Source: Escherichia coli
GTDB taxonomy: Bacteria; Pseudomonadota; Gammaproteobacteria; Enterobacterales; Enterobacteriaceae
DNA length: 64,000 bases
Assembly (NCBI RefSeq): GCF_003018235.1
Contig: NZ_CP027437.1
Direction: 5' to 3' (one strand)
Of this stretch, positions 5,023-11,250 are shown piece after piece; position 1 is the first letter of the stretch; the number at the start of each line of letters is the position of its first letter. The translations under genes were made by a program, and so were the position numbers. Under the pieces are notes generated by a model. That model worked only from the letters and a program-made list of their open reading frames with translations, ran no database searches and was not told the DNA's origin.

Positions 5023-5192
5023 ATGATTTTCACCGAACGATGGCGACATAACGATTGTATTTTCTAAGGAAACGTGCAAAGAGTTTTCCAATGATGAGCC
5101 TTATATGCATACCTGTGGAAAATATCAATAAGCCGCGCAGAGTGGTTTTTTTGTGGACATAAACTTTGTGCAGAACGGTAACCATTATGGTT

Positions 5193-5229
5193 GCCGTGAA
5201 TGCAGTTTTTTTACATTGCTGGCTTTTTT
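5193..5229 (+). terminator. tR'-like intrinsic terminator about 190 nt downstream of Q
   Basis: Imperfect hairpin gccgtgaatg...cattgctggc followed by tttttt; matches the lambda PR'/tR' layout. Confidence 0.4.
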
Positions 5230-6099
5230 AGATTTGTGTTAGTTATTGATATTAACAAGAAGGGGAAAAGACATGCTAAAACGGCAGGATATGAAGGAAA
5301 CGGTTATGCGTGAATGTTCCAGTGTGATTAACCATATCATCTGGAGAAGCCATCCTGATGCAGGGAAGAGGTAACAGTAACGCGCATCAATCAGGCTGCA
5401 AATAAATGGCTTACGCCGGAAATCTGGCTATCGATGTATTACCGGTTTGTTACCCATGAAGAAAATTAAGGTGATAACGAAACTGATTTTATAGGTGTCT
5501 TGTCAGAGTGTTGCGATGAAACTTGTGTTGGCAGTGCAGGGAAAACAGTAGGATGAAAATTATAAATTGCTTTAAATGAGCTTGATTTTCCTCATGTTAT
5601 GAGATATTTGTCTTATATTGCTGGTTAATTATGAAAATTTTTGTAAATCTACAGCAATAAAATCCATATTAATTAAAGCACTAGATGCGTTTCTGATTTG
5701 TGCATGAAACATACATATCATAATGATTAATTGCATCTATAATTACAGATACAGCATTGTGCTATTAAAAAACTGGAGTCCCCATGAATACATTATATGT
5801 AAGTGATTCAAATGAAAAATCTCATGACAGGAATAAAAACAATGAGGATAGTAAGGGTAAGGATAATAAAAAAGACAACCGGAAAGAGTAAATAATCTTT
5901 CCTGCATGAAAATACTAGGGTGGAATATGTCAGAACATCCAGATTTTGATGACCGTAAGCCTGATGATGAGCCCGTTGAGCGTCCTGATGAGGGGCAACC
6001 ATTGAACCCTTTTTCACCGGATGATAAAAGAGATCCTATTATTTAGATATAGCAGAATATAGCCGTTTAAAGTAGGTTGTGTTTTGTTGCTATCCTTAA

Positions 6100-6126
6100 A
6101 CCACCTCCACAGGAGGTGGTTTTTTA
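6100..6126 (+). terminator. Strong Rho-independent terminator
   Basis: Perfect 9-bp stem accacctcc / ggaggtggt with 3-nt loop, then ttttt. Confidence 0.8.
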
Positions 6127-6182
6127 CTAATGGAACATTAATTGGCAGATGTGATTGTGTACGACTTATGGGAGGCTTAAGA

Positions 6183-6368
6183 TTATTTTCTGCCAATAAT
6201 AAAACCAAGCGTTAACCCTATGCTTAGAGCAACCACCACGCTAGTCAGTGGATAATTTCTAAATTTATCTTTAACGTTTTCTTTGCCTCCCTGCAAAGCA
6301 TCGTCAGCACATGATGCATATTTTTTGACAGTATTAACTATTTCGTTTTCAGATTGATTTGAAGTCAT
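6183..6368 (-). CDS. Small tail-anchored membrane protein, DUF883 (YqjD/ElaB/YgaM)-like; 61 aa from the first ATG (ORF open to 6467 with a TTG)
   Basis: C-terminal NYPLTSVVVALSIGLTLGFIIGRK resembles the DUF883 membrane anchor; weak SD agga. Confidence 0.35.
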   Translation of the reverse strand: MTSNQSENEIVNTVKKYASCADDALQGGKENVKDKFRNYPLTSVVVALSIGLTLGFIIGRK

Positions 6369-6823
6369 GTTTGAAGTCCTGATGTTAAGTGGTTTTTTAA
6401 TTATAGCAGATATGCTTTCAATGATAGGGCGGAGAGTTGTTATTGAGGTGATACTATGACCACTCAATCAATATTACATAAAATGACGTTTACTCCTGTT
6501 TGGCACAGTAGCAGAATTTTGCTTCTGCTACTGAAGTCGCTTTAGCACTAGAATATGCAGATGGATAAAGCAGTTCAGCGTATGTACTGCGTCATGCATA
6601 TCGGTCTTGCAGATATGACGAGAAGGGGAGACAAGGTGTGTGTAATGTAGAAGTCTTTAAAGTGCTGTCTGGGATAACTCTATGCTGAAGTGCAATTGAT
6701 AAAAGTAACACGATAAAGGTTTTTCAATGAAGATGGTAACGTGATGCTTGCATTTTTCAAAAAATATGGATAAAATTTTTTCAAAGATGGGCTTTGTATA
6801 CCCGACGTTAAGAAAAAGTAGAA

Positions 6824-6852
6824 AACCCGCTGATGAGCGGGTTTTGTGCTTT
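6824..6852. terminator. Bidirectional intrinsic terminator (3' end of the cspF transcript on the - strand)
   Basis: Hairpin cccgct-gatg-agcggg flanked by T-rich tracts on both strands. Confidence 0.55.
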
Positions 6853-7137
6853 AAATGGGGCAATGGTAATGTTGAATCTCATCCCGGGACTCATGTCTGT
6901 TAACTTATTATTTAGCTGGTGACTTGGTTATTTGCCTGATGTTTAAAATGTTTTCTTCCAGTACAATGTCCCTAAACACAATGAGTCTGCTTATTATATT
7001 ATTAGCAGAGCTATTACGGCCAAAGTACAGCATAAGCTTTTAAAGCCAATCAACCAGTCATCAAGACAGACGGGGTTATTCATAAAAACTCTCCATGTGT
7101 GATCCGATGGGGCCTGAAATTAAAGCTTTAATATAGC

Positions 7138-7350
7138 TCATGAAAGGTAAACATTGGCAGCTGAAGGGCCACGCAGACCATTTATCCGGCAAAATTCCAC
7201 GCGTAATCCGGTGGTAATTTCTTCTGCATCGCGGAGATTGAGCGCTGAAACATGAAGCTGGACATCGATACGACCATCGGATGGGGTGATAAGACCCTTG
7301 CCGCTTTTGCCGTCAAAGGTTTTGACAATTCCTGTCATTTTACGGGACAA
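7138..7350 (-). CDS. cspF: Cold-shock-like protein CspF
   Basis: 70-aa translation [70 protein letters not shown]. Confidence 0.9.
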
Positions 7351-7650
7351 AAAAATTCCTTAATACTGATAACTTGGCGCACTATACACACGTTCCTGAA
7401 GAAAGCTATAGTTTTTTGATGGGGTTGAAGATGGCTGGATGTCTAAAATAAACATTGCTTCATATGTTCAACTATGCGTTAATGATTGCGTCGGTTTGAA
7501 GAACAGACGATATACGAAGTAGTTTACTAAAGCAGTTCTCATTTCAGGTGTTATTCACTTATTCCTTCTTTGAGTCTCTCCAATTAAGTACGAAGTCGTT
7601 TCTGTTATGCAAACCATTTATGCCGAAAGGCTCAAGTTAAGGAATGTAGA

Positions 7651-7866
7651 ATGTCAAATAAAATGACTGGTTTAGTAAAATGGTTTAACGCTGATAAAGG
7701 TTTCGGCTTTATTTCTCCTGTTGATGGTAGTAAAGATGTGTTTGTGCATTTTTCTGCGATTCAGAATGATAATTATCGAACCTTATTTGAAGGTCAAAAG
7801 GTTACCTTCTCTATAGAGAGTGGTGCTAAAGGTCCTGCAGCAGTAAATGTCATCATTACTGATTAA
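7651..7866 (+). CDS. cspB: Cold-shock-like protein CspB
   Basis: 71-aa translation [26 protein letters not shown]... with the CspA-family RNP motifs. Confidence 0.9.
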
Positions 7867-8147
7867 AATTCATCGCTCGTCTGTATACGATAACGAAGAA
7901 GGCTGATGCCTGAGTAGAGATACGGACAGAGTAGTGAATATTGGATCTCTTTAATAAAAAGTAAGGAGATCCAATACATGAAACAATGGCCAGCATATTT
8001 GGCAAAATCTTAATCAGGAAAAGTATGCTAACCATTGTGGTGAAGTGCAGGTTTGCTGCATGAATAGTTTCACAGCAGAAGCTAACTGCTGGCATCGCAA
8101 AACAAAGTGCGTAAGTGGATGACTCCCACAAAAAGCACCACAATCTC

Positions 8148-8172
8148 AAACCCGCTCAGGCGGGTTTTTTAT
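8148..8172 (+). terminator. Rho-independent terminator about 290 nt downstream of cspB
   Basis: Hairpin cccgc-tcag-gcggg followed by ttttttatt. Confidence 0.7.
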
Positions 8173-8229
8173 TATCTGCTTTAAATATATTATTAAAATA
8201 TAAAAAATACTTGTTACTAATAAAATCAA

Positions 8230-8400
8230 TCAGGCTACAGCTTTAAGATTTGTCTGGAATACTTTGTTGCAATGAGGGCAGATCAAAAGGGCACCTTTTT
8301 GTACTCTTGAAAAACTGTGTTCTGACTCTTGGGTGCAGTTTGGGCAGGAACATTTAACGAGATAATTACGGCGTGATTTTGAGTCTTTACGTTCTGACAT
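8230..8400 (-). CDS. ynfU: Small zinc-ribbon protein (56 aa), YnfU-like
   Basis: MSERKDSKSRRNYLVKCSCPNCTQ...CPHCNKVF with CxCPxC...CPxC motif; assignment to ynfU is from memory of the K-12 small-protein set. Confidence 0.5.
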   Translation of the reverse strand: MSERKDSKSRRNYLVKCSCPNCTQESEHSFSRVQKGALLICPHCNKVFQTNLKAVA

Positions 8401-8619
8401 AGGCTTTTCCTGTATAAATGGCCGTATACAGTACACTAAATATGAAAACATTTCTCGTATTATTATTTTATATATGACTTTCTTTCAAAATAATTACCCA
8501 CATTTTTAATGTGTATGTTTTTTTAGCGCCGTTGAGAACAACGTGTGCTGTCAAAACTACCCCGTAGACTCCGATCTTTTCAAACATATTGCACCATCCG
8601 TGTACATCGGGGTGAGGAT

Positions 8620-10535: not shown

Positions 10536-10748
10536 ATGTCTAACAAAATGACTGGTTTAGTGAAATGGTTTAACCCTGAAAAAGGTTTTGGTTTCATCAC
10601 GCCGAAAGATGGCAGCAAAGATGTGTTTGTCCATTTCTCAGCAATTCAGAGCAACGATTTCAAAACATTAACTGAGAATCAGGAAGTTGAATTTGGTATT
10701 GAGAACGGACCTAAAGGTCCTGCCGCTGTTCATGTAGTGGCGCTTTGA
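10536..10748 (+). CDS. cspI: Cold-shock-like protein CspI
   Basis: 70-aa translation [26 protein letters not shown]... Confidence 0.9.
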
Positions 10749-10952
10749 GGTAGACAATATTACAAACCATATTCACTTTAGATGCCCGTGTTGTCATGGT
10801 TCCCAGTATAGAACATCATCTTTTGATGTTTCTGACATGAATCCTTTCGGGGCAAAATGTATCTTTTGTAAATCAATGATGATTACATTTGATAATATTT
10901 CACAATACTTAAATGCCAGCCGTCTGTCGTTGGATTTAAAAAAGTGAAAATG

Positions 10953-10976
10953 AAGGCTCCTTCGGGAGCTTTTTTG
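10953..10976 (+). terminator. Rho-independent terminator
   Basis: Hairpin gctcc-ttcg-ggagc followed by tttttt. Confidence 0.65.
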
Positions 10977-11019
10977 CTTGGTGTCTATTCGATGGATACT
11001 CACATACTACGGTAACATC

Positions 11020-11250
11020 ATGAAAAAAATCATAGTTTTTTTTAACTCTGAACCAGCAGTGGTAGTGCCAGCGATGACTGGAGTTAACACCATCATGCGT
11101 GAATATCCAAATGGCGAAAAAACACACCTTACTGTAATGGCCGCAGGGTTTCCATCTCTGACCGGAGATCATAAAGTCATTTATGTAGCCGCGGATCGAC
11201 ATGTTACTTCAGAAGAAATTCTGGAAGCAGCAATAAGGCTCTTGAGTTGA
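11020..11250 (+). CDS. Hypothetical protein (76 aa)
   Basis: ORF MKKIIVFFNSEPAVVV... on the late strand between cspI and gnsB; no clear SD. Confidence 0.3.
   Translation: MKKIIVFFNSEPAVVVPAMTGVNTIMREYPNGEKTHLTVMAAGFPSLTGDHKVIYVAADRHVTSEEILEAAIRLLS

Follow-up and report, generated by a model that had tools for sequence, protein, structure and literature searches.

Expression of the CspA family of cold-shock genes is governed by mRNA structure and decay, and several described kinds of RNA element invite comparison with the one considered here. CpxQ and SroC exemplify small RNAs (sRNAs) that are processed from the 3' untranslated region (UTR) of an mRNA, with a stable product that carries the mRNA's own terminator. 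Stabilizing or retroregulatory 3' sites, such as the RNase E site in the cspA 3' UTR, lambda sib and the ProQ-protected 3' ends of cspE, consist of one hairpin or a short site each. Riboswitch aptamers and cis-acting antiterminator RNAs such as HK022 put and EAR form another group, and Rfam describes the cspA thermoregulator as family RF01766. In this work we analyzed the cold-shock genes cspF and cspB within 64,000 nucleotides (nt) of Escherichia coli DNA (contig NZ_CP027437.1, assembly GCF_003018235.1; hereafter the window, with position 1 its first letter and (+) the strand as presented), which represents an E. coli Qin-like lambdoid prophage. An earlier note, made from the letters alone, had described a divergent pair in which each gene is followed by a tail of ~290 nt that ends in an intrinsic terminator and holds a tiny open reading frame (ORF), and had suggested that these long structured regions could be sRNA-like or small-peptide elements. 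We find cspF to be followed by ynfS, and cspB by a structured, non-coding 3' UTR of ~300 nt (the cspB tail) that probably acts in cis on 3'-end formation and RNA stability. The fold of this tail is conserved and covaries on the cspB-sense strand, and an abundant RNA 3' end lies at the foot of one of its hairpins (hairpin II). To our knowledge, E. coli K-12 is the genome most thoroughly searched for structured and regulatory RNAs, and yet a ~300-nt element with strong covariation, cross-genus spread on phages and phage-plasmids and an abundant 'orphan' 3' end carries neither a family nor a name.

The features of cspB and its tail are the following.

7490-7866, (+) strand: cspB 5' UTR and coding sequence (CDS), the CDS at 7651-7866 (Rfam RF01766; ORF list).
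7868-7939, (+) strand: domain I, a long hairpin with its basal stem at 7879-7886/7920-7927 and an apical hairpin at 7901-7910 (minimum free energy (MFE) fold; alignment A3).
7887-7900, ACGAUAACGAAGAA, and 7911-7919, UGAGUAGAG, (+) strand: the conserved purine-rich internal loop of domain I (alignment A3).
7939-7976, (+) strand: hairpin II, the hairpin of the earlier note extended to 14-15 bp (predicted folds).
7978-8013, (+) strand: an 11-codon ORF, MKQWPAYLAKS, judged to be no conserved gene (translation).
7979/7981, MG1655 1641226/1641224 (-), (+) strand of the window: the major in vivo cspB-sense 3' end (Term-seq, PMC7815308).
7983-7987 and 7988-7997/8024-8033, (+) strand: the linker ACAAU and hairpin P0, the latter with a loop of variable length (alignment A2).
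8034-8144, (+) strand: a four-way junction, with P1 at 8034-8042/8136-8144 and P2 at 8045-8050/8056-8061 (alignment A2; RNAalifold).
8073-8078/8086-8091, (+) strand: junction helix P3, with the invariant 7-nt loop AAGCUAA (alignment A2).
8104-8115 and 8115-8119/8125-8129, (+) strand: the invariant junction strand J3/4, AAAGUGCGUAAG, and helix P4 (alignment A2).
8148-8173, stem 8148-8167, both strands: an intrinsic-terminator hairpin common to cspB and the convergent ynfU (terminator scan on (+), 8-bp stem and U-run; Term-seq on the ynfU strand).

The tail may thus be viewed as four modules, namely domain I, hairpin II, P0 with the four-way junction, and the terminator. With the CpxQ- and SroC-type sRNAs it shares an abundant, discrete end within the 3' UTR, conservation that extends beyond the CDS, and the lack of a conserved internal promoter (none was predicted in the tail by a promoter scan and none is conserved in the alignment). 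It differs from them in that the end lies upstream of the terminator at a hairpin devoid of a U-run, in that the terminator-proximal part goes undetected at 37 °C, and in being far more elaborate, with a four-way junction and two further domains. As with the stabilizing and retroregulatory sites, the position of the 3' end, and presumably mRNA stability, is set by a structure within the 3' UTR, in a cold-shock family governed by mRNA decay; however, the cspB tail is ~300 nt long and has invariant junction strands and an alternative pairing. RF01766 matches the cspB mRNA itself at 7490-7913 with 158.9 bits against a gathering score of 78, which marks cspB as a cspA-type thermoregulator mRNA (5' UTR and CDS), but the model ends with the short cspA terminator just past the stop codon, the alignment breaks down after about 7913, and the tail lies outside it. 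Last, like riboswitches and antiterminators, the tail combines a junction of several helices, joined by invariant strands, with a conserved alternative pairing, and lies just before a terminator. Unlike these, it occupies the 3' end of its gene, has convergent genes beyond it, shows by eye no overlap of the switching helix with the terminator, and has no counterpart in Rfam: apart from weak terminator look-alikes, no family of Rfam 15, its ribozyme and riboswitch families included, matched the tail in the window (E <= 1) or in six divergent homologues (E <= 10), while RF01766 scored above threshold on the cspB 5' UTR and CDS in all of these. Literature searches for a cspB 3'-UTR RNA (covering RIL-seq, ProQ, Term-seq, covariation and Qin/sRNA topics) returned nothing besides the Term-seq tables discussed below.

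Phage-borne CspB-like genes of the Enterobacteriaceae carry the tail as a conserved and integral component, which occurs in prophages, phages and phage-plasmids of several genera. Homologues were first recovered by blastn with the cspB tail from Qin-like phages and, at 76-82% identity, from phage PHB10, where the match lies behind an annotated cold-shock gene, and from the phage-plasmid Cyrano, where the gene ahead of it is CspB-like but unannotated. The set was then widened by pattern scans, run on viral contigs and on one genome per species, with lineages from Enterobacter, Kosakonia, Kluyvera, Phytobacter, Superficieibacter and another Escherichia species; a search for CspB-related loci gave only near-identical Qin copies and no added diversity. 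Of 5,426 E. coli genomes, 1,715 have the element, and 91 of its places are on plasmids. In most of the recovered variants a CspB-like CDS precedes the element in the same orientation, with 129-238 nt from its stop codon to the P3 loop; no such CDS was detected for 8 variants, some of which are accounted for by contig truncation, divergence of the N-terminus or a chance match. Within the window, neither the pattern search nor a covariance model found a second copy.

Several observations were made at these loci in passing. The Cyrano gene (OV696614.1, 2131-2346) is a complete CspB-like gene with a cspA-type 5' UTR (Rfam, 187.6 bits), unannotated in the record and situated between hicAB and a convergent dnaE (annotated as DNA polymerase III alpha subunit). 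Near the csp cassette of phage PHB10 (locus L004, 3788-3989) STnc100 scores above its Rfam threshold, as does the SraC/RyeA-SdsR/RyeB pair beside the Kluyvera locus (L163, 843-987). In the tail of Enterobacter sp. JUb54 a tandem octamer array, CTGAAAGC, is inserted between P2 and P3, and in Escherichia sp. E1V33 (about 700-930 of its locus) the tail lacks hairpin II and P0, domain I being joined almost directly to P1. YnfU was considered as an obligate partner of the tail RNA and rejected: a Klebsiella phage (L245) has a ynfU-like gene by the holin with neither a csp gene nor a match to the covariance model (R1, described below), and Cyrano carries the RNA with no ynfU-like gene found in its genome.

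The tail folds far better than expected of its composition, with an MFE of -105.7 kcal/mol (z = -7.0; 0 of 100 shuffles equally good). In alignment A2, which comprises 33 distinct sequences of the core (7983-8144), 93.6% of cells are paired, 12 of 36 pairs are changed on both sides (4 of 10 in P0), and none of 500 shuffles reaches the covariation score; RNAalifold, run independently on the same alignment, predicted the same helices as the structure drawn by hand. When the partners were slid by 1-3 columns, pairing in the core fell to 24-55%. Across P1, P2 and P4, G-U pairs outnumber A-C combinations 43 to 10, and the cspB-sense strand is favored on that account. Domain I was examined in alignment A3, made up of 14 lineage variants; here 6 of 7 basal pairs (7 of 10 overall) are changed on both sides, 82.9% of cells are paired and again 0 of 500 shuffles reach the covariation score. 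Its internal loop has the consensus ACGAUAACGAWGA opposite CCUGAGURGA, from which we infer, and only infer, a loop-E-like platform for protein binding. In all, six helices covary, and the conserved core lies downstream of the features to which the earlier note had drawn attention. The hairpin that it had reported (tggatctc/gagatcca, 7942-7973) is real and is the inner part of hairpin II; equally strong hairpins of unrelated sequence occupy the same position in Cyrano and in two further lineages (L014 and L047). A covariance model of the core (R1) has a single match in the window, at 7981-8145 with 147 bits, and none in the Klebsiella phage that has ynfU but no csp gene. Furthermore, a search anchored on P1 and P2 alone returned 29 viral loci, and in all of them the P3 loop and J3/4 strand are exact; the invariance of these segments thus goes beyond an effect of the search.

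Could such conservation reflect nothing but the shared ancestry of mobile phage DNA, the helices having no function? All copies reside on related mobile elements, and relatedness can inflate scores that are based on shuffling. Yet the sequences diverge to ~76% identity while 93.6% of core cells stay paired, many types of pair occur at single positions (five at pair 142-149 of P4), and loop lengths vary freely while the stems are kept; moreover, the slid controls, in which the relatedness is retained, drop to 22-55% paired over core and domain I. We therefore consider an ancestry-only explanation highly improbable. Three other candidates were set aside or left without signal. An identity as tRNA or tmRNA was rejected, since ARAGORN reported none in 6500-8500 and, as we read the fold, a tRNA would not have loops of these sizes or joining strands of about 11 and 22 nt; pairing between the 5' UTR and the 3' tail was dropped, the best duplex reaching -60.8 kcal/mol against a shuffle mean of -62.0; and an all-against-all scan of alignment columns for tertiary or pseudoknot pairs gave no usable signal, lineage correlation being dominant.

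The tail is non-coding, as stop codons occur in all three frames of the core in every lineage and loop lengths differ by numbers that are not multiples of three. The 11-codon ORF described by the earlier note does exist at 7978-8013, and its translation agrees. It had been proposed that the AAGGAG Shine-Dalgarno (SD) sequence of this ORF is partly buried by hairpin II, making the region a regulated small-peptide element, and ORF, AAGGAG and hairpin are indeed all present in the window. However, ATG and SD are found only in the Qin lineage; no other lineage has the ATG, even though the nucleotides around it are kept as RNA, and the hairpin II sequences of other lineages are unrelated. The variants within Qin (MKQWLAYLAKS and one ending in AIT) were read, by inspection rather than formal tally, as changing amino acids, and the P-to-L change converts a C·A mismatch in P0 into a U-A pair. 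The major RNA, moreover, ends exactly on the ATG(A). The ORF is unannotated in MG1655, where ynfS and ynfU are annotated, and has no entry in a small-ORF ribosome-profiling supplement, a weak negative given that control coordinates were equally absent. We give the masking of an SD sequence very little credence.

To place RNA 3' ends we used the curated Term-seq table of Adams et al. 2021 (PMC7815308, supplementary file 1), which covers MG1655 at 37 °C in three conditions (LB at an optical density (OD) of 0.4, LB at OD 2.0, and M63). MG1655 coordinates equal 1649205 minus the window coordinate, a relation verified on the cspB CDS and on the sequences printed in the table, whose match to the window fixes the cspB-sense end at 7979/7981. 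This end, classed as 'orphan', has 604,404, 1,233,565 and 2,464,295 reads in the three conditions (PMC7815308); for scale, the same-strand entries in the portion of that table used here include sroA with 976,436 and the dksA terminator with 3,097,035, the smallest having ~23,000 (PMC7815308). It lies ~115 nt past the cspB stop codon, directly at the foot of hairpin II, among a handful of unpaired bases that precede the linker and P0. The same work reports that cspB is subject to Rho-dependent attenuation within its 5' UTR or ORF (PMC7815308). The hairpins taken by the earlier note for the ends of the two tails are the one listed above at 8148-8173 and the following.

6812-6845, stem 6822-6845, both strands: a bidirectional intrinsic-terminator hairpin separating the cspF-ynfS unit from transcripts that arrive from the Q (ydfT) side (terminator scan on (-), 10-bp stem; Term-seq on (+)).

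The terminator scan finds a G+C-rich stem-loop followed by a U-run at both places, 6845-6822 (-) and 8148-8167 (+), and these terminator-like hairpins lie 293 nt (cspF) and 282 nt (cspB) from the stop codons, so that this part of the claim stands. As to RNA 3' ends, no cspB-sense end is called at 8148-8173 and no cspF-sense end at 6822-6845 at 37 °C, although cold shock falls outside this sampling and ends of low abundance fall below its calling floor. Each hairpin yields ends on the opposite strand only: MG1655 1641060 (+), window about 8145 (-), with ~940-1,030 reads on the ynfU strand, and MG1655 1642356 (-), window about 6849 (+), with 55,000-123,000 reads (PMC7815308). Both hairpins thus appear to be bidirectional and are documented as terminators of the convergent transcripts, from ynfU and from the ydfT/Q side respectively. 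Since the strong end is at 7979/7981 and none is called at the terminator, the predominant cspB-derived RNA at 37 °C carries only ~115 nt of the tail.

These data bear directly on whether the junction and terminator (about 7982-8173) are cleaved from the cspB mRNA as a trans-acting sRNA, whose invariant segments AAGCUAA and AAAGUGCGUAAG would contact other RNAs or a protein. Such segments are unpaired, a terminator with a U6 tail is present in the Qin, Cyrano and L014 lineages, and the Term-seq end at 7981 would then mark the 5' end of the sRNA. A stable cspB-sense species ending at its own terminator should, however, have an end near MG1655 16410xx, and none is called in the three conditions at 37 °C, as opposed to up to 2.5 million reads upstream at the dominant end, 1641224/6. 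The PHB10 clade, in addition, has no GC-rich terminator hairpin, and a 35-pair four-way junction is unusual among Hfq-type sRNAs. On balance we hold a trans-acting sRNA to be distinctly unlikely.

It is more reasonable to postulate that the tail acts in cis, on 3'-end formation and RNA stability. The transcript would be cut (or would end) within the short unpaired stretch that separates hairpin II from P0, trimming would follow the endonucleolytic cut, and hairpin II would protect the RNA upstream of it (the cspB mRNA, a domain I fragment, or both) from 3' exonucleases. The junction domain would be removed and would not accumulate at 37 °C. Because hairpin II has no U-run, an endonucleolytic origin of the 7979/7981 end is the most likely one. 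A dedicated 3'-UTR module of this kind would add a layer to cold-shock gene regulation, and would show what phages add to the cold-shock genes that they carry as cargo.

A number of points weigh against this cis-acting account. The abundant RNA could be the whole mRNA or only a 3'-UTR fragment; its 3' end could come from non-canonical termination instead of cleavage; and the Term-seq conditions were all at 37 °C, whereas cspB is cold-induced. The set of modules is not uniform, as hairpin II is weak or absent in the Enterobacter/Kosakonia lineage and the GC-rich terminator hairpin is missing from the PHB10 clade. Part of the homologues came from exact-pattern searches, which makes the P3 loop and J3/4 look more invariant than is warranted beyond the clade tested with P1 and P2, and the number of lineages is limited, such that cell counts overstate independent events. 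Last, the very high conservation of the junction is poorly explained if the junction domain is simply discarded; it argues for a role before or during formation of the end, or under cold shock or phage induction. With the 11-codon ORF set aside, the 3' UTR of cspB in enterobacterial phages and prophages stands as a well-supported candidate for a new family of structured RNAs, with a putative mechanism.

A further property of the core may bear on that mechanism. The linker ACAAY (7983-7987) is complementary to the 5' strand of P1 at 8034-8038, and this helix excludes the lower half of P1, which itself covaries with the same strand. Over the 33 sequences the five positions of the alternative helix read AU 33; CG 29 and UG 4; AU 33; AU 12 and UA 10; CG 24 and UA 7. 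Mutually exclusive conserved pairings, P1 versus linker:P1-5', are thus present, as is usual of riboswitches and attenuators. Constrained folds give the two states nearly equal energies, between -2.5 and +5.8 kcal/mol apart in 11 lineages (+0.5 in the window), and the predicted energies of the states show no consistent shift between 37 °C and 15 °C. The alternative pairing is compatible with a bistable element, but is no proof of one; competition of the linker and the 3' strand of P1 for a single partner could set the exposure of the cut site.

In its boldest form this becomes a proposal that P0 and the four-way junction constitute a new class of cis-acting bistable RNA processing element of phage-borne cold-shock genes. 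Switching between P1 and an extended P0 would expose or hide the cut site by hairpin II, the element may even direct the cut itself (as a ribozyme, or as a mimic for a structure-specific nuclease such as RNase P), and it would set the level of the stable cspB or domain I RNA, perhaps by temperature. We regard this as a speculative proposal and unlikely in its entirety, though worth stating; were the junction a processing switch or a binding platform, it would represent a new class of RNA in a genetically tractable setting. The alternative pairing also raises the prospect of a switch that senses a ligand or protein, or of an antitermination RNA, that governs read-through of 8148-8173 into the lysis genes (essQ, ydfR, rrrQ). 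An aptamer-like junction with invariant joining strands directly upstream of a terminator, and the absence of a terminated cspB-sense product at that terminator, fit such a role. Against it, the contexts examined all place a convergent gene next in the annotation, namely ynfU in Qin and PHB10 and dnaE in Cyrano; by eye, it is the linker and P1 that form the alternative pairing, with no overlap of the terminator stem; and the PHB10 clade, as noted, has no terminator hairpin. Read-through control therefore seems to us very unlikely, and the cis-acting 3'-end module remains the reading we prefer.

The other half of the locus has a simpler explanation.

7138-7350, (-) strand: cspF CDS (ORF list; RefSeq annotation).
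6994-7083, (-) strand: ynfS (b4750), a 29-amino-acid hydrophobic small protein (translation identical to MG1655 YnfS; SD GGAG at 7091-7094).

The divergent arrangement of cspF and cspB described by the earlier note is as found, and so are the 29-codon ORF of the cspF tail and its GGAG, 7 nt upstream of the ATG. The encoded peptide is identical to MG1655 YnfS at 29 of 29 residues, its start lying 54 nt past the cspF stop codon; the ORF is YnfS itself, already known, annotated and experimentally detected. Tagged YnfS was observed by VanOrsdel et al. on immunoblots of a chromosomal sequential peptide affinity (SPA) tag fusion (PMC6001520), and strong ribosome peaks with retapamulin and Onc112 mark its start codon (Weaver et al., bioRxiv 10.1101/511675). 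A small-peptide element co-transcribed with cspF was thus a correct suggestion for a gene already on record, and the cspF half is a rediscovery, of value only as a check. The suggestion of long, structured, sRNA-like 3' regions holds for the cspB tail, with its z of -7.0, six covarying helices, cross-genus conservation and abundant 3' end, but not for that of cspF, whose folding is unremarkable (z = -1.1; 11 of 100 shuffles equally good). The two tails are unrelated to each other, and the cspF-ynfS unit would end at the hairpin that also stops convergent transcription.

Among the relatives, ynfS is retained only in the Qin lineage, at 93-100% nucleotide identity and with few amino-acid changes. 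In five Qin-like viral contigs (L117, L114, L111, L105 and L079) cspF is frameshifted, and a deletion that spares the terminator has removed most of the tail together with ynfS and the cspF 3' end; the cspB tail is intact beside the damaged gene. At loci from Kosakonia, Phytobacter and metagenome-assembled genomes (L156, L159, L149 and L154) a same-strand gene for a 56-amino-acid zinc-ribbon protein of the YnfU family follows the cspF-like gene in place of ynfS. Antisense to ynfS, Term-seq records a 3' end at MG1655 1642188 (-), window about 7017 (+), with 87,904 reads in LB at OD 2.0, directly after the hairpin tctgcttattatattattagcaga (inverted repeat 6986-7011), from which it follows that transcription from the Q side enters ynfS in antisense. 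The succession of cspF and ynfS repeats a theme of cold-shock genes followed by small ORFs that is also seen at cspI with ynfQ, ynfR and ynfN (YnfQ/YmcF and YnfR being encoded downstream of cspI), from which the cspB tail differs in having no conserved ORF. YnfR has been reported to be cold-induced (PMC6001520).

The region 6700-8300 is 99.9% identical to several E. coli chromosomes, and most of the stretch occurs in 1,411 of 5,426 complete genomes. Annotation was taken from a RefSeq record 99.9% identical to the window and from MG1655. Read along the window, ydfU and ydfT (antiterminator Q) come first, followed by an extra stretch that holds a small (-) gene, then ynfS (-), cspF (-), cspB (+), ynfU (-), the lysis genes and cspI, with one neighbor standing as context outside the RNA.

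8230-8400, (-) strand: ynfU, a zinc-ribbon small protein, convergent with cspB (RefSeq annotation; NCBIfam NF038384).

The extra stretch, ~1.7 kb relative to MG1655, lies between ydfT and the cspF terminator (about 5030-6820), and its small gene is an ORF at 6183-6467 (-) for a hypothetical protein with a hydrophobic C-terminus (WP_000203370.1) to which no NCBIfam model matched. At 10536-11250 several small genes come after cspI in the same orientation (a ynfQ/YmcF-like gene, ynfR and ynfN, as annotated in the near-identical record), which makes the cspI region another unit of a cold-shock gene with small proteins.

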